Below are positions 2,569-11,955 of a DNA stretch of 15,545 nucleotides, piece after piece. The notes beneath the pieces were generated by a model. It was not told the DNA's origin and made no database searches. It saw only the letters and a program-made list of their open reading frames with translations. A program made the translations under genes and the position numbers. Origin of the DNA: Chamaesiphon polymorphus CCALA 037 (GTDB taxonomy: Bacteria > Cyanobacteriota > Cyanobacteriia > Cyanobacteriales > Chamaesiphonaceae); the NCBI RefSeq assembly GCF_003003845.1, contig NZ_PVWO01000088.1, positions 1-15,545 on the forward strand, in the 5' to 3' direction. Position 1 is the first letter of the stretch. Each line of letters opens with the position of its first letter.

Positions 2569-4170
2569 TCAATTATTTGTATTTTTTAGCGATGGTGTAG
2601 ATTTAAAGAATAAGATTAACCCGATCGCGAATAATAGTGGTGTCAACCAGTTACCATAACTAACGTATAAAGTTTGGGTATTTTGACGATAAACTAAATG
2701 TGCGTGTGCGGCAAATTCATTGAGTTTAGAGATCCATTGCGTGCGTCCGTGCGGATCGATAACTGCTGAATAACCAGTATTGCTAGCGCGTAACATCCAG
2801 CGATCGGTTTCGATCGCTCGCATCAAATCTAGAGCGTGATGTTGTGCTGGCATTGCCGCACCATAATGAGCGTCATTAGAAGCAGTAATAATTAATTCTC
2901 CCGTCTGTGCTTGACGGCGAAAGTGCTCTGGATAGGCCGAATCATAACAGATGCCAAAAATAAAATTACCGAGTGGTGTATTGACGATCGGGGCAAATTT
3001 GCCAGCTAATAAATGCGCTTCTAAAGGTGAAATTGTATCGATAAGTTTGCCTAAATATTGCTCGAACGGAATATATTCGCCTAATGGTACTAATTTCCAC
3101 TTATCATAACGACTGACGATCTGTCCCGTACTATCGATCGTCAAGATACTATTAGTAATTTTGTTACCCACTTCGCCAAATCCACCGAGAAAGGCCATAA
3201 CTTTTTTATCTAAAATCGTTCGATAAAAAGGTGTATTTTTAATATCACTTTCGCGATAGGGAAATGCTGTTTCTGGCGTCATTACTGCCGCTACTCCTTG
3301 CTGCGCTAAGTCTACATAACCTTTAGTATAATTTTCCATGGCCAGATCGTATCCAGAGCGATAATGTCTGACTTCGTTGCCAACATTACCCTGAATGATG
3401 CCGATCTCGATCGCAGATTCAGCTTGTTGTAATAATGGACGATTTGCTAAATTAAACCCGATCGCATGTAAGATAATTATGGATGCGATCGCCGTACCAA
3501 AATAAGGCCATGCCGAGCGACTTTTTCGCTCCGATCGAGTGCGATGCTCGTGCCCAGCGGCTCCGCCAAGGATGGCTAAACAACCTTCAGCAATTAAACC
3601 ATTAATAAACACGATCGCGCCAGTAACAGTTGTCGGCCCCGATAATTGTCCCAGATGCAGAATGGCTAAATTATGCGGACTTTGAGTCATTGCCAATGAC
3701 GACCACCACAAATCTGTCAGACTATATAATTCTTCCAATCCACACCATAAAACCGTCCCTAAAATTACGCGACCAAAGGGATTAATTTGAGGTGTTGAGG
3801 TATAAATAAACCGCAAACCTAACGACCATAAAGTTGCTAAACTCGCACCCCATAAAGTGATAAAAGTCAAGCAAAAAGTAGCAATTCCCAAGCTAGCCAA
3901 ATAAGGAACGCCCATCCAAGTCATGGGATGGATGCCAAAGATCCAACTCAATGCCAAGCCGTAGCAACCAATGCCCCAACAACAGCCATAAACTAGCGCA
4001 CGAGCATCGCGTTGACACAGTAAGTACCACAATGGTGCGATCGCTACCCAAGCCAAATACCAAGCTTCAACGGGTGCAACTGTCATCCCCATCAAGACAC
4101 CACTACCTAGTGCGATGCCGATCTTGAATAGCTTGTGCCGATCGATTCGATCGCGAAAGGGTAGTAGCAT
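2569..4170 (-). CDS. lnt: apolipoprotein N-acyltransferase
   Basis: 533 aa. The N-terminal half is polytopic and hydrophobic. The C-terminal half is a CN-hydrolase domain with the Lnt-type E-K-C signature: VMTPETAFPY, YDKWKLVPLGEYIPF, FGICYDSAYPE. Confidence 0.9.
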   Translation of the reverse strand: MLLPFRDRIDRHKLFKIGIALGSGVLMGMTVAPVEAWYLAWVAIAPLWYLLCQRDARALVYGCCWGIGCYGLALSWIFGIHPMTWMGVPYLASLGIATFCLTFITLWGASLATLWSLGLRFIYTSTPQINPFGRVILGTVLWCGLEELYSLTDLWWSSLAMTQSPHNLAILHLGQLSGPTTVTGAIVFINGLIAEGCLAILGGAAGHEHRTRSERKSRSAWPYFGTAIASIIILHAIGFNLANRPLLQQAESAIEIGIIQGNVGNEVRHYRSGYDLAMENYTKGYVDLAQQGVAAVMTPETAFPYRESDIKNTPFYRTILDKKVMAFLGGFGEVGNKITNSILTIDSTGQIVSRYDKWKLVPLGEYIPFEQYLGKLIDTISPLEAHLLAGKFAPIVNTPLGNFIFGICYDSAYPEHFRRQAQTGELIITASNDAHYGAAMPAQHHALDLMRAIETDRWMLRASNTGYSAVIDPHGRTQWISKLNEFAAHAHLVYRQNTQTLYVSYGNWLTPLLFAIGLILFFKSTPSLKNTNN

Positions 4171-4171
4171 T

Positions 4172-4220
4172 GAGTTGGGAGTTGGGAGTTGGGAGTTGGG
4201 AGTTGGGAGCGGGGAGTGGG
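4172..4220. repeat. tandem heptanucleotide (STRR-like) array abutting the lnt start codon
   Basis: GAGTTGG x5 perfect (4172-4206), then GAGCGGG and GAGTGGG. On the lnt (-) strand this reads (CCAACTC)n and ends one nucleotide before the ATG (4170-4168). It is the same repeat family as 1144-1273. Confidence 0.9.
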
Positions 4221-4284
4221 GACATAGATTGGCACCGAATCACCGAATCCTGTAAATCCTTCAATCCTGATAAAGCTTTAGATT

Positions 4285-5306: not shown

Positions 5307-6347
5307 GTGAACCAGGGCATCTCACCTTATCTGATCCTTAACACTGACAACGGTCAACGCCAGCTATCATTAACTGATGGCAACTGCTGGACTGTCGGTC
5401 GGGGGGATGACAATCAATTTGTAGTCAAAGATCGTTGTATTTCTCGCAACCATGCGATGATCCAATACACTGATGCGGGCGATCACTACCTGATCGATTT
5501 GGGTAGTAGTAATGGCACCTTTGTCAATGGTCGCAGAGTGAGTATTCCCGTCACCATCCACGATGGGGACACGATTACGTTCGGTCAAACTGAATTTGAA
5601 TTTCACTATCCTAAAGCGGATGGTACGCTGGGATTGGATGCCGAAGGGACTCTCGATGGCACTGTCACGTCTATTTTACATCTGCGGAAGCTGATGTCTG
5701 TGATGGTGGTCGATATGCGCAACTTTACGATCCTTACCCGCCAAACCAACGAAAACTTATTATCGGAAGTGATGAGTGCTTGGTTCCGCAATGCTGGCGC
5801 GATCATTCGCAATCGCGGGAGCTGGGTAGATAAATATATCGGCGATGCTTTGATGGCGTTGTGGTTTCACAATGGGGAAACTGTCACCAAACAAGAGATG
5901 ATGAATATTCTCTTGGCACTAGACGACCTCAATCAGATGACTAGAGATTTAAGCCAGCAATATCCATTACCCTTTGAGTTAAAAATTGGTGCGGGTATCA
6001 ATACTGGTCATGCCATGATTGGCAATGCTGGTAGTGGCGACCAACCGGATTATACTGCGTTGGGCGATACCGTCAATGCGGCATTTCGGCTCGAAGCGAT
6101 TACCAAAGAACTTAATGCCGAAATTGCCATCGGGGCTTCTACCTATCGTTACTTAGCACCGTTATTGGGCAAACATCGAGTATTTAAAGAGTGTTCGGTA
6201 GATCTCAAAGGGTACGATGTTCCCGCGATCGTTCATGCTACCAATTTTGGCCCGCTCAATGCCTTTTTGCAATTGGCTAATACTGGCGGAGCTACTACCC
6301 AACTCGTACAGCCGCCACAGCAAACTAATATAATGCAGAAAAATTAG
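5307..6347 (+). CDS. FHA-domain class III adenylate (nucleotidyl) cyclase
   Basis: The N-terminal FHA signature is WTVGRGDDNQFVVKDRCISRNHAMIQ...YLIDLGSSNGTFVNGRRV. The C-terminal class III cyclase catalytic motifs are VMVVDMRNFT, YIGDALMALW, GINTGHAMIGNAG and DYTALGDTVNAAFRLE. The start is assigned to GTG 5307, since there is no in-frame ATG before the FHA domain. The architecture recalls Synechocystis Cya1. Confidence 0.9.
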   Translation: MNQGISPYLILNTDNGQRQLSLTDGNCWTVGRGDDNQFVVKDRCISRNHAMIQYTDAGDHYLIDLGSSNGTFVNGRRVSIPVTIHDGDTITFGQTEFEFHYPKADGTLGLDAEGTLDGTVTSILHLRKLMSVMVVDMRNFTILTRQTNENLLSEVMSAWFRNAGAIIRNRGSWVDKYIGDALMALWFHNGETVTKQEMMNILLALDDLNQMTRDLSQQYPLPFELKIGAGINTGHAMIGNAGSGDQPDYTALGDTVNAAFRLEAITKELNAEIAIGASTYRYLAPLLGKHRVFKECSVDLKGYDVPAIVHATNFGPLNAFLQLANTGGATTQLVQPPQQTNIMQKN

Positions 6348-6431
6348 TACCGATCGCTTTATAGATTAGATGAAAATATAATTGCAATTTAGATTTAGCT
6401 AATAACGCGATCGACACATTTAGCACCGCTA

Positions 6432-6581
6432 CTATACTGATTCTATCCAACGGCAAACTAGTTTGCCATCTGCATCAGTATACCAGCGACCGATCGGACG
6501 GGATGGTTCGGGCTGTTTATCGATCGGTTTAACTGGATTAGCTGGTTGTGGGTGGTTTGATTGGGTAATGGTAAGTGTCAT
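6432..6581 (-). CDS. small peptide, copy A (49 aa), not in the ORF track
   Basis: Hand translation of the - strand gives MTLTITQSNHPQPANPVKPIDKQPEPSRPIGRWYTDADGKLVCRWIESV followed by TAG TAG. GGAG lies 9 nt upstream of the ATG. It is paralogous to 6812..6961 (33/49 identical), with synonymous differences in the conserved C-terminal part. Confidence 0.6.
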   Translation of the reverse strand: MTLTITQSNHPQPANPVKPIDKQPEPSRPIGRWYTDADGKLVCRWIESV

Positions 6582-6703
6582 GATGCTGCGCTCCGAGATT
6601 AATGAATTGTAAAGACATTGAGTATTTGTGAGTTGTTTCTAGACGCGACGAAAGAACAAAAACAGTTTCGATCGATTTTATTTGCTAGTTATATTGACTT
6701 CAA
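6582..6703 (-). promoter_or_regulatory. conserved leader/promoter region of peptide gene A
   Basis: 6582-6641 matches 6962-7021 at 52/60 positions without gaps, which is better conserved than the middle of the ORFs. On the - strand it contains the SD GGAG, a TACAAT box (6611-6606), and further upstream TTGAAG (6703-6698)-N17-TAAAAT (6680-6675). The actual promoter is unresolved. Confidence 0.4.
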
Positions 6704-6753
6704 ATATTAAAACGATGATTCCAGAAACCCGATAATTTTCACAAAAAGTAATA

Positions 6754-6804
6754 TTAGGAATTAGTTTTGACTACTCGATCGGCTAAATAAATTTGGCTCC
6801 AAGC
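6754..6804 (-). pseudogene. relic of the last 16 codons plus stop of the HetZ-like gene (duplication scar)
   Basis: 39/51 nt are identical to 7223-7273. The - strand translates to AWSQIYLADRVVKTNS*, versus AWSQVYLVAQSLRTNS* at the true gene end. There is no upstream coding continuation. Confidence 0.6.
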
Positions 6805-6811
6805 ACCGAGA

Positions 6812-6961
6812 CTAGACCGATTCCATCCAGCCGCAAACTAGTTTGCCATTGGCATCGGTATACCAGCGACCCAGCGGCGGAACTGGCTTGGTTTGTTTAG
6901 CGATCGATTTAACTGGGTGAGCGAGTTGTGAGCCGATTGGTTGAGTAATGGTAAGTGTCAT
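6812..6961 (-). CDS. small peptide, copy B (49 aa), not in the ORF track
   Basis: Hand translation gives MTLTITQPIGSQLAHPVKSIAKQTKPVPPLGRWYTDANGKLVCGWMESV followed by TAG. GGAG lies 9 nt upstream of the ATG. The start sits exactly 380 nt from that of copy A. Confidence 0.6.
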   Translation of the reverse strand: MTLTITQPIGSQLAHPVKSIAKQTKPVPPLGRWYTDANGKLVCGWMESV

Positions 6962-7083
6962 GATGATGCGCTCCAAGCTTAATGATATGTAAAGATATTG
7001 AGTATTTACGAGTTGTTTCTAAGCATCAGAAAATAACTAACAGAGTTTCGATTGACTTTCTTTACTTGTAAGATTGACTTCAA
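6962..7083 (-). promoter_or_regulatory. conserved leader/promoter region of peptide gene B
   Basis: Counterpart of 6582-6703 at a constant 380-nt offset. The SD GGAG and the block AGAAACAACTC..AAATACTCAAT.TCTTTACA are conserved. The TTGAAG box is conserved (7083-7078), but the hexamer 17 nt downstream is only GAAAGT. Confidence 0.35.
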
Positions 7084-7171
7084 ATATTCAAACTCGGATT
7101 TCAGACACCTTCAGAATTTTTACAAAAAGTAATAAAAGAGCGCGAGCTAAAACAAATGTCCCGAAACAGAC

Positions 7172-7204
7172 AAAGACCCGACTTTTTAAAAAAGTTGGGT
7201 CTTT
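7172..7204 (-). terminator. hairpin downstream of the HetZ-like gene
   Basis: AAAGACCCGAC (7172-7182) and GTTGGGTCTTT (7194-7204) flank a TTTTTAAAAAA loop. On the - strand RNA this gives an 8-bp GC-containing stem plus 2 bp after one mismatch, beginning 19 nt after the stop at 7223 and followed by GTCTGTTTC. It is absent from repeat unit A. Confidence 0.5.
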
Positions 7205-7222
7205 AGCAGGGTTTGGATGCAA

Positions 7223-8401
7223 TTAGGAATTAGTTCTAAGCGATTGGGCGACTAAATAAACTTGACTCCAAGCTTTGAAGACTTCGTTAGTGCGCATGTG
7301 CAGCAATCGGGCGATTTGCTCGATCGAACTACCAGCTTTAATACTAGTTAAAATCTGGAGTTGCAGGGGAGCCAAACTCCCGCACAAGTTATCCCACTGA
7401 CTGGCAGTCAGCCCAAAATTATGTTCGGTAAGAGAGATCTGCAACCATTGAGCTACTAATTCCGATCGATCTTTCATCCCAAAAACTTTAGCGGCTTGAT
7501 ATTTGATATTTTCGCGCAGGCGATAGATGTGTTGGATTGGCAGCCCCATCGCTTGGGCGATGGCTTCGGGAGTTTGTCCTTGAAGGTAAAGATCGAGCCA
7601 GACACCAGCTTCGGTACCAAGTTTGGCAACTAGATGGTCTCGCAGTTCCGCTTTGACGTTCTCACGGAGGACTTGGATTTCTTCCCCGGCTTGCTGTTGC
7701 AGGTATTCCTCCTGAGATCGATCGTCGAGCAAACTCCAGGTCGAGTCATCATTGGCAATGACTTCATCGGATACTAATTTGACTAGCTCTCCTTTTGCGA
7801 TACTGGTCACGCCCCCACTTTGGGAACGGCGAAGATAGTTGACAAAGCGATAAGCAATCAGCGGGCGATTGCGGATCGGGCGCAGACAATATTCTTCAAC
7901 ACTGGCAAATAGTAAGGCATCGCGCAACCGAGGATTTTGGGTACATTTGCCAATCCAAGCGAGTTGCTGCTGAATGTAGCGATCGCTCTGCAACAGTTCT
8001 TGAATAATTTCTTGCAAGACATCGACGACAGTCCGCTGACAATCGCTGCTTTGGGCGATCCAGGCGCGGATTTGTTCGCCGAGGACTGCCACCCCACCCA
8101 AGCGTTGCATTAAGTGCTTGTAAGCCCGTGTGGGTGGCAATCCGAGATATCTTTGGCTGAGGATGCGCCATTGATAATCCATTGCCTGCCGAGCGATCTG
8201 CAACTCCCGTGGCTCTAAGGTTTCCAATCGTTGGCGATCTTCGCCTAGCAGCCAATTGACAATACTCGCTTGGCTAGCTTCAGTTTGCTGGGCACATTCT
8301 GCGGCTACGCGGGTTTGCCACTGGCGATCGATCTCGTCTGCTACTGTAGTTGTCAAAGCAGGCCGAGCGGTTAAGTTAGGGATTAATGTGGCAGTCATCA
8401 T
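7223..8401 (-). CDS. putative transcription regulator with two C-terminal sigma-70 region-4/LuxR-like HTH segments (possibly HetZ-related family)
   Basis: 392-codon ORF starting at ATG 8401. The C-terminal third has two HTH-like stretches: LYLQGQTPEAIAQAMGLPIQHIYRLRENIKYQAAKVF and LQILTSIKAGSSIEQIARLLHMRTNEVFKAWSQVYLVAQ. Size and layout remind me of cyanobacterial HetZ/HetZ-related proteins. That assignment is recall only and needs an HMM search. Confidence 0.8.
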   Translation of the reverse strand: MMTATLIPNLTARPALTTTVADEIDRQWQTRVAAECAQQTEASQASIVNWLLGEDRQRLETLEPRELQIARQAMDYQWRILSQRYLGLPPTRAYKHLMQRLGGVAVLGEQIRAWIAQSSDCQRTVVDVLQEIIQELLQSDRYIQQQLAWIGKCTQNPRLRDALLFASVEEYCLRPIRNRPLIAYRFVNYLRRSQSGGVTSIAKGELVKLVSDEVIANDDSTWSLLDDRSQEEYLQQQAGEEIQVLRENVKAELRDHLVAKLGTEAGVWLDLYLQGQTPEAIAQAMGLPIQHIYRLRENIKYQAAKVFGMKDRSELVAQWLQISLTEHNFGLTASQWDNLCGSLAPLQLQILTSIKAGSSIEQIARLLHMRTNEVFKAWSQVYLVAQSLRTNS

Positions 8402-8660
8402 TCAGGCTCCTTGTCAGCTAGTTATTCGTCAGAGAATTACCGATTGACTGGGATCTCGTCCTGCATCATCAATGCGCTGTATTTCTCTTTCGTGTCCCTA
8501 GTATCCACCCAGACCGCGACTGGAACCAGAGGAGATAGATCGAGATAAGCAAGCACTTAAGCAATGCCAAGATCTGTAAAAGAAGTTCCACTAGTGGGGA
8601 TCTCACTAATCTGCACGATCGCCAGCCGTTGGCTGTTGTGGTAATTGGGGCGGTCGTCGG

Positions 8661-8680
8661 CTTAAGTCAAACTTAAGTCA
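8661..8680. repeat. direct repeat CTTAAGTCA-AA-CTTAAGTCA (11-nt period), possible operator
   Basis: Read directly at 8661-8669 and 8672-8680. Each copy contains the palindrome CTTAAG. It lies in the 380-nt divergent spacer, about 100 nt upstream of ATG 8782 and about 260 nt upstream of the HetZ-like start. Confidence 0.6.
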
Positions 8681-8781
8681 GTAAATTAAGGTAACAGCCG
8701 ATCGCGATCGTTAGATTCTTTACAATAAAATGATTCGATACTGTTGTATCTATACAGCCATTCGTAACTCTGTCAACTGCA

Positions 8782-9165
8782 ATGAACGCCAAAAAGAGTC
8801 GCCGCCGAGGAGTCGTACTCTCGTCAACCGGACAACAAAAACTCGAAACTGCCCGACGACAGTTTGAGAAAGCGGGTAATAACGGCGATAGATTCACCTT
8901 AGAAGAACTCAGCGAACGCACGCAGCTAGCAGTCAGTACGATTACCCGCGTGTTGGAATCCCAAATTGGGGTTGACAAATTAACCATCGACCAGTTTTTT
9001 GCGGCCTTCGATCTACTGTTGGAACGCAAAGATTATCACAGTCCAGAGCAGCTCGCAGCGGAGCAAAGTACTCCCGATCGGCCCGCGCCCACAGCGGCAG
9101 AGTCTGCGCTGGGGCCGATCGAGTCAAACAAACAAATCGTCGATTGGGGTGAAGCGATTCTCTGA
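8782..9165 (+). CDS. fragment 1: N-terminal HTH domain of the NB-ARC/WD40 protein
   Basis: ATG 8782. RGVVLSSTGQQKLETARRQFEKAGNNGDRFTLEELSERTQLAVSTITRVLESQIGVDKLTIDQFFAAFDL is an XRE-type HTH, as seen at the N-terminus of many cyanobacterial NB-ARC/WD40 proteins. It ends DWGEAIL* where relatives continue DWGEA.DVS.FYGR. Confidence 0.7.
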   Translation: MNAKKSRRRGVVLSSTGQQKLETARRQFEKAGNNGDRFTLEELSERTQLAVSTITRVLESQIGVDKLTIDQFFAAFDLLLERKDYHSPEQLAAEQSTPDRPAPTAAESALGPIESNKQIVDWGEAIL

Positions 9166-9275: not shown

Positions 9276-11486
9276 ATGGGTGGAATTGGCAAAACTGCCC
9301 TATCGGTCAAACTCGCCCAGCAACTACTTCAGAGCGACACGTCATTTGAATTTATTATCTGGCGCACCCTGCGTAACGCGCCACCATTGGAGTTATTACT
9401 CACCGATCTGATTCAAATCCTCTCTTGCCAGCGTGAAAGCTTGCCTGCATTGCCGATTTCATCACTTTTGAATCGCTTGATTCATTACCTCCGCCAGCAT
9501 CGGTGTCTGTTGATTTTAGATAATGGCGAAACAATTCTCCAGGGCGGACAGTTTACCGGACTGTATCGCCCAGATTATGAAGCCTATGGCGAACTATTAC
9601 GTCAAGTGGGAGAAATCGCGCACCAGAGTTGTGTGGTGCTAACCAGTCGGGAGAAACCGGAAACGATCGCCAATCTCGAAGGTGATAATTTACCCGTGCG
9701 CTCGTTTGCCTTAGCGGGATTGCCAGAGGATGATAGCGATCGATTGTTCGATGCGATCGGATTATTGCCATCGCCAATTGGCAGACGCAAACTGATTGAA
9801 GTTTATAGTGGCAATCCCTTGGCTCTGAAGATTGTCGCGACCTCAATTCGAGAACTATTCGATGGCAATGTCGATGCTTTTGTCAGCGAAGAAACGACAA
9901 TTTTTAATGGTATTCGGCGGTTGCTCGATCGGCAATTCAATCGATTGATGCCGCTGGAACGACAAGTGATGAATTGGTTATCGATCGAGCGGGAGTGGGT
10001 AACGATCGCCAAATTACAGACAGATATCGTCCCCTCTGTGCCCAAACAACGGCTGATGGAAACATTAGAATCTCTATCGCGGCGCAGTTTAATCGAGCAA
10101 AAAAATGGTCGGTTTACTCAACAACCTGTCGTCATGGAATACACGACCGAACGGTTAATCGATCGTATCTGTGAGGAAATTCAGACGGTCGATCCCGATC
10201 TTTTGACATTTAATTCCTATGCTTTAATTCAAGCTACGGCCAGAGATTACGTGCGCGAAAGTCAAGTGCGAACGATCTTACAACCGATCGCCGATCGCGT
10301 GTGGCAACAGTTTCGCTCGGCGGCAATATTCGATCGACACATGCGGCAAATTTTAACAACAATTAAAAACTCAGAAATTGCATCTGTCAGCTATGGAGCG
10401 GGGAATCTGATTAACTTAATGCACCAACTCCAGCTCGATTTAACTGGTTACGATTTTACCGAGCTGGCAATCCGGCAGGCTTGCTTGCAAACTGTCCCGC
10501 TGCATCGAGTTAATTTGAGCGGTGCCCAGATAATTGATTGTCAGTTTGCCGAAACGATCGGGCCTACCTATTCGTTGGCAATTAATACAGATATCGATCG
10601 GCTGGCGATCGGTGGTGAAGATGGTACGATCCACATCTGGCAAGCATCAACAGGGCAACCCTTACTGACGATCGAGGCACATACTACCTTTATTTTTGCA
10701 CTTACCTTCAGTCAAGATGGCCGAACTTTAGTCAGCGGTGGTATCGACTCGCTGCTGCGGTTTTGGGATGTTACTACGGGCACTTGCTTAGAGACGAGAA
10801 AGTTAGATGGTTCGATGTGGGGATTGGCGCTGAGTCCAGATGGTAAACTCCTCGCAGGAAGCACATCTAGCGAACATCGCGCCCTCTACGTTTGGGATGG
10901 CAGCAGTGGGGAATGCCTGAACACCTTGACCGGACACGACGCGCAATCTAGAGAAATGAAGTTTATTCCCTCGCCGCTGGCTGAGACTGGCTGGTTGCTA
11001 GTCAGTGGCTCTCATGACTGTACCCTCAAAAGTTGGGATCTCGAACGGGGTGATTGTCTGCGCACTCTGACCGGACATACCAGCATCGTGTTTACAATTG
11101 GCGTACGCCCCCAAGCAGATCTCATCGCTAGTGGCAGCTTCGACTCTACGATTAAACTCTGGAACTGGCAAACGGGCGAATGCGTGCGAACTTTAGTCGG
11201 GCATACCGCCGAGGTGACGAGTATCAGTTTTAGCCCCGATCGGCAACTGCTAGCGAGTGGCAGTAACGATCTGACGATTCGGATTTGGGAGGTGGAGACG
11301 GGAGAATGCCTCCAAGTATTGCAGGGACATCAAGACCAAATTTGGAAAATAGCATTTACTATCGCTCCCCAGCAAGATGGCAGCAAACAACTCATCCTCA
11401 TCAGCATCGGCTTCGATCGCACCATGCGATTTTGGCATATTTGCACTCTAGCGGCAACGCCACCACTGCCACTCGATTGCGTTTGA
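9276..11486 (+). CDS. fragment 2: NB-ARC ATPase, winged helix, pentapeptide-like linker and about 7 WD40 blades
   Basis: Walker A GMGGIGKT (9273-9296), Walker B CLLILDNGE, NB-ARC GxP motif SGNPLALKIVA. The linker is LTGYDFTELAIRQACLQTVPLHRVNLSGAQIIDCQFAE. WD40 units follow, such as GHTSIVFTIGVRPQADLIASGSFDSTIKLWNWQTGEC and GHTAEVTSISFSPDRQLLASGSNDLTIRIWEVETGEC. Confidence 0.8.
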   Translation: MGGIGKTALSVKLAQQLLQSDTSFEFIIWRTLRNAPPLELLLTDLIQILSCQRESLPALPISSLLNRLIHYLRQHRCLLILDNGETILQGGQFTGLYRPDYEAYGELLRQVGEIAHQSCVVLTSREKPETIANLEGDNLPVRSFALAGLPEDDSDRLFDAIGLLPSPIGRRKLIEVYSGNPLALKIVATSIRELFDGNVDAFVSEETTIFNGIRRLLDRQFNRLMPLERQVMNWLSIEREWVTIAKLQTDIVPSVPKQRLMETLESLSRRSLIEQKNGRFTQQPVVMEYTTERLIDRICEEIQTVDPDLLTFNSYALIQATARDYVRESQVRTILQPIADRVWQQFRSAAIFDRHMRQILTTIKNSEIASVSYGAGNLINLMHQLQLDLTGYDFTELAIRQACLQTVPLHRVNLSGAQIIDCQFAETIGPTYSLAINTDIDRLAIGGEDGTIHIWQASTGQPLLTIEAHTTFIFALTFSQDGRTLVSGGIDSLLRFWDVTTGTCLETRKLDGSMWGLALSPDGKLLAGSTSSEHRALYVWDGSSGECLNTLTGHDAQSREMKFIPSPLAETGWLLVSGSHDCTLKSWDLERGDCLRTLTGHTSIVFTIGVRPQADLIASGSFDSTIKLWNWQTGECVRTLVGHTAEVTSISFSPDRQLLASGSNDLTIRIWEVETGECLQVLQGHQDQIWKIAFTIAPQQDGSKQLILISIGFDRTMRFWHICTLAATPPLPLDCV

Positions 11487-11502: not shown

Positions 11503-11955
11503 TTGGCTACTGTCGGTCACGATAGTTCCGTCAAGCTGTGGAATGCCGATTCCGGGGAGTGTTACCAGACATTATGCGGCCATACGGGGATTCTCGGTGC
11601 GGTTGCCTTTAGTCCCGACGGCAAGATCCTCGCCAGCGGTCGGAGCGATCTCACGATTAGACTGTGGGATGTCTCTACTGAAGAGTGTTTTCATGTCCTC
11701 ACAGGTCATACCAGCGGCGTGACATCGGTATGCTTCCTCCCTGTAGATCCAGCTCGACCGATCGAGACACAACCCCAAATTCTCGTCAGTGGCTCTCATG
11801 ACGAAACCATTCGCTTGTGGGATATCAAAACAGGTGAATGTGTGAGGATGTTCCGACCCGATCGACTGTATGAGGGGATGAATATTATAGGGATAACTGG
11901 ACTGACCGAGGGATCGATCGCGACGCTGAAGAGTTTGGGGGCTGTGGAGCAATAA
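11503..11955 (+). CDS. fragment 3: C-terminal WD40 blades and tail
   Basis: The frame is open from 11452 (RQRHHCHSIAFDPQGHLLATVGHDSSVKLWNADSGEC...). It has 3 further WD units and ends RPDRLYEGMNIIGITGLTEGSIATLKSLGAVEQ*, the usual C-terminal tail of cyanobacterial WD40 STAND proteins. Confidence 0.75.
   Translation: MATVGHDSSVKLWNADSGECYQTLCGHTGILGAVAFSPDGKILASGRSDLTIRLWDVSTEECFHVLTGHTSGVTSVCFLPVDPARPIETQPQILVSGSHDETIRLWDIKTGECVRMFRPDRLYEGMNIIGITGLTEGSIATLKSLGAVEQ

Follow-up and report, generated by a model that had tools for sequence, protein, structure and literature searches.

The window analysed here, a stretch of 15,545 nucleotides (nt) from Chamaesiphon polymorphus CCALA 037 (contig NZ_PVWO01000088.1), carries on its minus strand a pair of very short open reading frames (ORFs) directly downstream of a gene for a HetZ-related protein, and it is this pair, together with its flanking DNA and its relatives in other genomes, that we describe. 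Small-protein gene copy A (6432..6581) encodes 49 residues, MTLTITQSNHPQPANPVKPIDKQPEPSRPIGRWYTDADGKLVCRWIESV (RefSeq WP_181243782.1), and copy B (6812..6961) likewise encodes 49 residues, MTLTITQPIGSQLAHPVKSIAKQTKPVPPLGRWYTDANGKLVCGWMESV (RefSeq WP_181243783.1); both peptides are present in RefSeq as hypothetical proteins of C. polymorphus CCALA 037. The two ATG codons are spaced 380 nt apart and each is preceded, 9 nt to its 5' side, by the Shine-Dalgarno (SD) sequence GGAG, at 6591-6594 for A and 6971-6974 for B; copy B has an additional upstream TTG at 6976. The peptides are identical at 33/49 residues (67%), a similarity far above chance, and among the last 19 codons seven differ between the copies, four of them synonymously. 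The two ORFs with their spacing, shared residues, GGAG sequences and codon differences had been read by hand in the first-pass annotation of this DNA, and the coordinates, translations, spacing, SD positions and codon counts agreed when we located and recomputed them. Two further features of the ORFs can be set aside. A perfect 16-nt palindrome, GGCAAACTAGTTTGCC, at 6452-6467 encodes G-K-L-V-C in copy A and is matched at 15/16 positions in copy B; it is probably incidental, because the homologues keep the residues G-K-L-x-C and do not conserve the nucleotide palindrome underneath. An antisense ORF at 6463-6612 was dismissed, as its frame is interrupted by stops in most homologues.

Are these ORFs genuine genes? 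The contigs of homologues were fetched to obtain their DNA, and the resulting set comprises nine distinct sequences: A and B themselves, their counterparts A' and B' in a closely related strain (L003-L005), and single copies in L055, L056/L057, L059, L060-L063 and L064-L067. A' is 98% identical to A, and B' is 88% identical to B and intact. Only the proposed frame (+0) is free of stops in 9/9 sequences, while each other frame is stopped in most of them. The sole insertion or deletion (indel) within the ORF is of 3 nt, compared with 1-6 gapped positions per pair in the upstream leader, and the purine-rich SD stays 9 nt upstream of the start though its letters vary (GGAG, GAGG, AGGA). Retention of G-K-L-x-C where the nucleotide palindrome is lost likewise speaks for coding. 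In Nei-Gojobori (NG86) comparisons, the proportions of non-synonymous and synonymous differences (pN/pS) are 0/0.20 over the N-terminal seven codons and, for A against B, 0.07/0.39 over the C-terminal 19 codons, compared with 0.30/0.37, a ratio of about 1, over the 23-codon linker between them; for the whole ORF the ratio of the corresponding substitution rates (dN/dS) is 0.39-0.68. The N-terminal heptapeptide and the C-terminal 19 residues are thus under purifying selection and the linker drifts, which bears out the modular, protein-level selection that the first-pass annotation had read from the two copies. It had also asked whether any homologue keeps the frame, and all nine do; the codon-aware comparison that it proposed gave the excess of synonymous over non-synonymous change at the conserved ends. 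Because the frame is open throughout, the one indel is in frame, selection acts on the ends and the SD position is kept, we conclude with high confidence that A and B are protein-coding genes. The family evolves fast: comparison with the orthologous locus in L055 gives dN 0.28 at dS 0.63 for the peptide, whereas the flanking gene for a protein with a forkhead-associated (FHA) domain and a nucleotidyl cyclase domain (FHA-cyclase) has dN 0.035 at a similar dS of 0.81.

The proteins of the family are 48-49 residues long and hydrophilic, with a grand average of hydropathy (GRAVY) of -0.12 to -0.77 and no hydrophobic stretch. Invariant or nearly invariant residues are found at the N-terminus, M1-T-L-(T/I)-I-T-Q7, and near the C-terminus, W33-Y-T-x-A-[DN]-G-K-L-x-C-x-W-[IM]-[ED], and are joined by a linker rich in Pro, Lys and Gln, fixed in length and freely drifting in sequence. 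AlphaFold2, run on an alignment of five sequences, predicts only a C-terminal beta-hairpin, with strands at residues 30-35 and 41-46, a mean predicted local distance difference test score (pLDDT) of 86 for residues 31-40 and 66 overall, the remaining chain being disordered; a hairpin in this place had been suggested from the sequence by the first-pass annotation, which also recognised no family and, finding no RGSGR, set the peptides apart from PatS/PatX. Both of these statements stand. RG(S/T)GR is missing from all nine family sequences, searches against Pfam and NCBIfam at E <= 0.1-1 gave no family match (the best in Pfam being only DUF4222, E = 0.17), and PADLOC and PHROGs returned nothing meaningful. 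Viral contigs and plasmids held no relatives of the peptides, Foldseek found no match in PDB at E <= 0.001, which is unsurprising when the model has 49 residues and a pLDDT of 66, and in the literature search neither the peptide sequences or accessions nor the 'HetZ-related' proteins were mentioned.

A few apparent matches were rejected. The string RWYTSALGKL in psilocybin synthase, returned by a PDB sequence search at E = 0.016, is a chance match. A metagenome profile match, L058, proved a false positive, a GWYTDADGK motif in a 624-aa repeat protein. The Listeria-Bacteroides (Flg_new) and choline-binding repeats do resemble the peptides in having a short hairpin motif of the type aromatic-x-x-D-x-x-G-K (GWYTDxxG), but in the L058 protein this is a motif of about 10 residues within a large secreted repeat protein, and neither peptide matches the Listeria-Bacteroides (Flg_new) repeat model of Pfam at E <= 1, so that we treat the resemblance as convergence or chance and not as homology. 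When 1.84 billion cluster representatives were scanned exhaustively with HMMER, only two clusters emerged; word-indexed searching of 5.8 billion proteins gave one near-identical protein and four proteins in all, and a profile search added one further family protein. The family is therefore very small, and Chamaesiphon polymorphus and its near relatives are the only organisms in which we have met it.

Conservation is not confined to the ORFs. The leader of copy A (6582..6753, about 172 nt, minus strand) and that of copy B (6962..7134, minus strand) belong to a region whose conservation accompanies that of the ORF in all the genomic contexts, at 55-79% identity between subfamilies, with nothing alignable outside the unit. 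Comparison of the window with L055 shows 66% identity in the leader and a pS of 0.49 in the flanking FHA-cyclase gene, and the intergenic DNA past the unit cannot be aligned; conservation of the leader thus exceeds the neutral expectation. The edges are sharp: counted from the ATG, the contexts of L056, L060 and L064 show 92-95% DNA identity between -170/-173 and +294/+359 and are unrelated beyond, and the window copies and L055 share the region from -174/-182 to about +190 with these three at 70-78%. Each gene is thus a self-contained module of about 170-180 nt of conserved upstream DNA, an ORF of 48 or 49 codons and, 3' of the stop, a conserved stretch a few tens of nucleotides long. In our reading the leader probably acts as promoter and regulatory region of its own gene, the 5' untranslated region (5'UTR) being short and carrying a purine-rich ribosome-binding site; alternatively, it may be a long 5'UTR. 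A candidate -10 element, TACAAT (6606-6611), lies 24 nt upstream of the ATG of copy A with a poor -35, the corresponding hexamer in copy B is TACATA (6986-6991), and further upstream the leader holds direct repeats GTCAAT/GTCGAT about 22 nt apart and a TTAC-N5-GTAA inverted repeat. In the L056 subfamily an extra 150-210 nt of noncoding DNA are conserved 3' of the stop (L056 1064-1276, L060 and L064 8148-8360, L059 1020-1165), containing a hairpin ATGAAGC...GCTTCAT and no conserved ORF; this extended region is lacking in the window copies and L055.

A leader about as conserved as the ORF might also be expected if the ORFs were untranslated and the whole unit a noncoding regulatory or RNA element, open by chance. 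One compensatory exchange can be cited for such a reading: alignment columns 57/141 of the leader pair as G-C in five sequences and as A-U in four, within an AU-rich helix of 6-7 bp that joins two conserved leader blocks. However, consensus folding of the leader with RNAalifold was negligible (-3.9 and -2.4 kcal/mol), so that we claim no RNA structure, and Rfam gave no match for the window region or for the L056, L059 and L062 units. With the frame open in all nine sequences and the others mostly stopped, the only indel in frame, synonymous change in excess at the conserved ends and the SD held in position, we regard a noncoding origin of the pattern as highly improbable.

How did the two copies arise? 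The similarity of A and B reaches beyond the ORFs, and because of this we take the true unit to be a tandem segmental duplication. A repeat search revealed a 300-nt repeat, 6422-6721 and 6802-7101 (79% identity, spacing 380), which takes in most of each leader besides the ORF, and a 52-nt repeat, 6753-6804 and 7222-7273 (77% identity), which corresponds to the copied 3' end and stop codon of the gene at 7223-8401, encoding the HetZ-related protein 2 discussed below. Unit 1 (6802..7270, minus strand, 469 nt) takes in the 3' end of this gene with its probable terminator, then leader B and ORF B, and unit 2 (6422..6801, minus strand, 380 nt) comprises a remnant of the gene fragment, leader A and ORF A. 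The start of unit 2 is marked by a defunct copy of the final ~50 nt of the HetZ-related-2 gene, TAA included (6754..6804, minus strand), and the junction of the units reads GGTGCT/TGGAG, with GCT as microhomology. Unit 2 is without the 88 nt that match 7135-7222 of unit 1, and these 88 nt hold the hairpin and U-rich tract. Leader, ORF and gene fragment were thus copied as one block: a 469-nt segment (the last ~50 nt of the HetZ-related-2 gene, terminator, leader and ORF) was duplicated in tandem, and the second copy afterwards dropped 88 nt including the terminator, both ORFs having stayed intact since. The closely related strain of L003-L005 has the same two-copy locus with both ORFs intact, and the same dead-fragment structure was found in L003. 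Divergence between A and B corresponds to dS ~0.48, and neighbouring genes differ between the related strains by dS ~0.2; the duplication predates the strain split, and in age it is comparable to, or a little below, the divergence from L055.

Elsewhere the module is found in quite different surroundings. L055 shares with the window orthologous DUF3120 (88%) and FHA-cyclase (92.8%) proteins and has a single peptide module in the same place, but there the position of the regulator is taken by a divergent DUF1838 gene; the orthologous position is marked by the convergent neighbour at 5307..6347 (plus strand), with an FHA domain and a class III nucleotidyl cyclase. The L056/57 copy lies between the rplJ leader and a tRNA/SpoU methylase. 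In L056 the ribosomal L10 leader is at 405-568 (43.4 bits against a gathering score of 44) and a tRNA gene is at 1426-1509, with the module between them. The L060-63 copy follows lysA and faces a cluster containing GNAT and asparagine (Asn)-synthase-like genes, and the L064-67 copy sits between genes for an acyl-CoA dehydrogenase and a GH3 glycosidase; for the latter context no clean empty site was found, L068 being rearranged. These organisms are Chamaesiphon and close relatives of C. polymorphus, since the acyl-CoA dehydrogenase of the L064 context and its counterpart in C. polymorphus CCALA 037 share one 90% cluster and the L055 FHA-cyclase is 93% identical to that of the window. As unrelated contexts occur among close relatives, the family has either spread as paralogues or undergone repeated relocation inside a narrow clade.

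Such behaviour raises the question of whether the unit of ~0.4-0.5 kb could be a selfish or mobile small-gene cassette, possibly resembling a type I toxin-antitoxin (TA) system with a regulatory RNA in its flanks. We find discrete modules with sharp edges in at least five unrelated contexts, three of them 92-95% identical, a tandem duplication in the window, conserved noncoding DNA 5' of all copies and, in the L056 group, also the 150-210 nt with a hairpin 3' of the ORF, together with rapid evolution and a very narrow taxonomic range. L062 moreover holds another insertion exactly at the 3' edge of the unit. Type I TA loci, exemplified by hok/sok, ldr/rdl, ibs/sib and zor/orz, are similarly compact (~0.4-0.6 kb) with a small ORF and conserved noncoding flanks, and are often tandem-duplicated, scattered in intergenic regions and lineage-restricted; a compact module that is tandem-duplicated and/or dispersed is what we see here. 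The toxins of these systems, however, are hydrophobic and insert into the membrane, whereas the peptides described here are hydrophilic throughout and have no transmembrane helix. Neither terminal inverted repeats nor target-site duplications were found, the 5' edge shifts by ~10 nt from copy to copy, and the unit travels without a transposase or recombinase. There is no match in PADLOC, PHROGs, plasmids or viral contigs, candidate antisense promoters are inconsistently conserved, and more than one copy per genome was shown only for the tandem pair. A selfish or TA-like origin of the unit is accordingly an unlikely explanation in our judgement, and the same doubtful standing applies to its more specific form, an autonomous self-propagating Chamaesiphon cassette that would encode a hydrophilic hairpin peptide and spread by tandem duplication and relocation without a recognisable transposase. 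The insertion in L062 (about 1648-1955) is 308 nt long relative to L060 and lies at +295 of the module; it contains a called 110-aa ORF on the opposite strand and is partly found also at the end of L063.

The gene upstream of copy B (7223..8401, minus strand; 392 aa as listed, 391 aa in the C. polymorphus CCALA 037 database protein C7B77_09260, to which it is 100% identical) belongs to the context and was not shown to be part of the module. It scores 515.7 bits on the model for HetZ-related protein 2 (NF037965, cutoff 400), with residues 26-390 covering positions 2-367 of 367, and only 59.2 bits on the HetZ model itself (NF037963, cutoff 550). The first-pass annotation called it a HetZ-like regulator; the protein is a HetZ-related protein 2 and not HetZ. 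Another HetZ-related-2 protein of C. polymorphus, P0101 (61% identity), is the more typical of the two. Just past the stop codon of the gene, and in unit 1 only, a stem-loop is followed by a U-rich tract (7172..7204, minus strand). The stem is of 14 bp, the minimum free energy is -19.8 kcal/mol for a 73-nt stretch (z = -3.2), and the sequence is conserved in L004. The element is a probable intrinsic terminator by its predicted fold, and a hairpin of this kind argues against co-transcription of the regulator and copy B.

In the first-pass annotation the peptides had been proposed as a signal module or peptide partner for this regulator, with the remark that their position mirrors patU5/patU3 behind hetZ in Anabaena PCC 7120 and with no claim of homology. 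HetZ is an ECF-type (extracytoplasmic function) sigma factor which is inhibited by PatU3, encoded downstream, and hetZ-patU5-patU3 are cotranscribed (PMC13342950). The peptides, like PatU5 and PatU3, are encoded by small genes directly downstream of a HetZ-family gene on the same strand, and one can imagine them as dedicated partners of the HetZ-related-2 protein, for example as a lineage-specific inhibitor or anti-sigma-like factor acting as PatU3 does on HetZ. This idea makes predictions about synteny, which can be examined. With an alignment as query (a genome scan with the single protein gave none) we collected 51 other HetZ-related-2 loci, 45 from genomes and six from metagenomes, at 46-71% protein identity. 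By tblastn and six-frame hmmsearch, a peptide homologue was found within 3-4 kb of the HetZ-related-2 gene in none of the 51. Conversely, at least four other contexts carry peptide homologues without any HetZ-related gene, namely L055, with its DUF1838 gene, and three further ones, all beside unrelated genes. What follows the regulator on the same strand in 26/51 loci is instead a gene for an M61 peptidase. In most Chamaesiphon loci an M61 gene with a PDZ domain stands behind HetZ-related-2 (for example at 5163-6884 in L006), with a gap of 34-67 nt in L006-L009, a pairing that to our knowledge has apparently not been discussed so far.

The closest HetZ-related-2 orthologue (L001/L002, 71% identity) provides one observation in favour of the idea. 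Behind it, at the place equivalent to that of the peptides, lies a remnant of the 5' end of the module of 36-45 nt; its aligned 36 nt (L001 4214-4249; L002 3367-3402) are 92% identical to that end and lie ~55 nt past the stop, and no peptide ORF follows. Because the remnant stands at about equal distance behind the L001/L002 regulator, the adjacency predates the split of the two lineages, which lends some weight to a functional partnership. In the same locus, however, the regulator has been retained after loss of the peptide. Upstream of the regulator two noncoding blocks on the minus strand, 8654-8690 (37 nt, 97%) and 8479-8538 (60 nt, 90%), are shared at these identities with the DNA upstream of the L001 orthologue, the proteins being 71% identical; block 8654-8690 holds repeated GACTTAAG palindromic motifs, and the blocks may be regulatory sites of the HetZ-related-2 gene. 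They share no motif with the peptide leaders, and the HetZ -35 motif TCCGGA is missing.

The comparison with PatU5/PatU3 thus breaks down at several points: the upstream gene there is HetZ and here HetZ-related protein 2; the genes there are cotranscribed (PMC13342950) and here a hairpin and U-rich tract intervene; here there is no synteny over 51 loci and no match of the peptides to a Pfam or NCBIfam family, in library searches only; and PatU5/PatU3 occur in filamentous cyanobacteria, whereas Chamaesiphon is unicellular. The analogy is biologically sensible, but the evidence is contrary to it, and we consider a dedicated partnership improbable. The position beside the regulator would then be a historical accident of rearrangement and not a sign of functional coupling.

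Another possibility is that the ORFs encode precursors of ribosomally synthesised and post-translationally modified peptides (RiPPs), with the maturation enzymes encoded elsewhere. A short conserved N-terminus, a conserved C-terminus containing Cys, Trp, Thr and Lys, and several paralogous copies would be in keeping with this, and the L060-L063 copy adjoins a loosely lasso-like cluster in which ORFs of 78 and 187 aa accompany an Asn-synthase-like gene and a GNAT gene (minus strand, 8344-11507 in L060; also present in L061 and L062, and in this context only). But no maturase is found in the window or in 4/5 contexts, the L060 cluster and the peptide gene run towards each other, and the Asn-synthase of the cluster scores 152 bits against a lasso-cyclase cutoff of 525 and does better on generic models. 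The rules for lasso peptides (Thr at leader position -2, Gly, Ala, Ser or Cys at core position 1, Asp or Glu at core position 7-9, and cyclase and B-protein genes alongside) are not kept over the family either: as a lasso precursor the peptide was rejected, since position -2 is Pro and not Thr, Asp/Glu is lacking at core position 7-9 in the L055/L056 types, and the window holds no cyclase. The arrangement G31...D38 is seen only in the window copies; the L055, L056 and L059 types have C/N at these positions and no acidic residue. Most RiPP families show a pattern of variation opposite to the variable middle and conserved C-terminus observed here. Taken together, we hold a RiPP precursor to be quite improbable.

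What, then, is the best explanation of the pair? We think it reasonably probable that A and B are copies of a lineage-restricted, self-contained small-protein gene, which was duplicated in tandem together with a fragment of its neighbour, both copies having since been maintained by selection that acts on the two termini of the product. This would be a hydrophilic cytosolic microprotein, built of the heptapeptide, the drifting linker and the Trp-flanked beta-hairpin. It could bind a larger partner via the strand-like N-terminal heptapeptide and the C-terminal hairpin, with the linker serving as a spacer, constrained in length and free in sequence, and expression would be from its own regulated promoter, as in other cyanobacterial microproteins. 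AtpTheta, NblD, AcnSP and the glutamine-synthetase inactivating factor IF7 are regulatory microproteins of cyanobacteria with their own stress-regulated promoters, and the peptides are like them in being shorter than 70 aa, cytosolic and free-standing, in having their own upstream region and in their presumed binding to a larger protein. Unlike them, and with no sequence similarity to them, the peptides are narrower in taxonomic range, faster evolving and dispersed or duplicated. They have no characterised relative and are in kind an orphan small-protein gene, of which many exist.

Several observations weigh against this explanation. The sharp edges of the module in at least five contexts among near relatives fit a selfish or mobile cassette as well. 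The remnant behind the closest HetZ-related-2 orthologue means that the adjacency of peptide and regulator is older than the duplication and ancestral to two lineages, and there could be a functional tie in a sub-lineage. The promoter assignment is weak, given the poor -35 of TACAAT and the change to TACATA in copy B, and the single compensatory pair hints that the leader may be transcribed. Finally, the binding mechanism is drawn from shape and analogy only.

Some other features of the window lie outside this argument. The protein encoded at 5307-6347 matches the PADLOC models of the Pycsar cyclase (PycC) at E = 7e-20, which probably reflects generic cyclase homology and not a defence system. 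On the plus strand, 8782-9165, 9276-11486 and 11503-11955 contain, respectively, an ORF resembling a helix-turn-helix protein (weak Pfam match), an ORF of 736 aa with WD40 repeats at its end and a WD40 fragment; lying in different frames, these have the look of a single large WD40-repeat gene disrupted by frameshifts. In intergenic DNA the heptamer AGTTGGG forms arrays at 1142-1191 and 4159-4222, with inverted copies at 1232-1270.

For the biology of Chamaesiphon, the analysis removes a tempting but unsupported link to the HetZ/PatU developmental circuit; we know of no partners or functions of HetZ-related proteins in non-heterocystous cyanobacteria. A finding of greater weight would follow if the unit were after all a selfish cassette, or if the peptides modulated a HetZ-related sigma-like protein. 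If the explanation that we favour is true, the locus would add one more lineage-restricted cyanobacterial microprotein, a clean and well-supported gene of fewer than 50 codons, and it would unite in one place modular selection, a datable duplication (dS about 0.48) and a fossil gene fragment at the junction.

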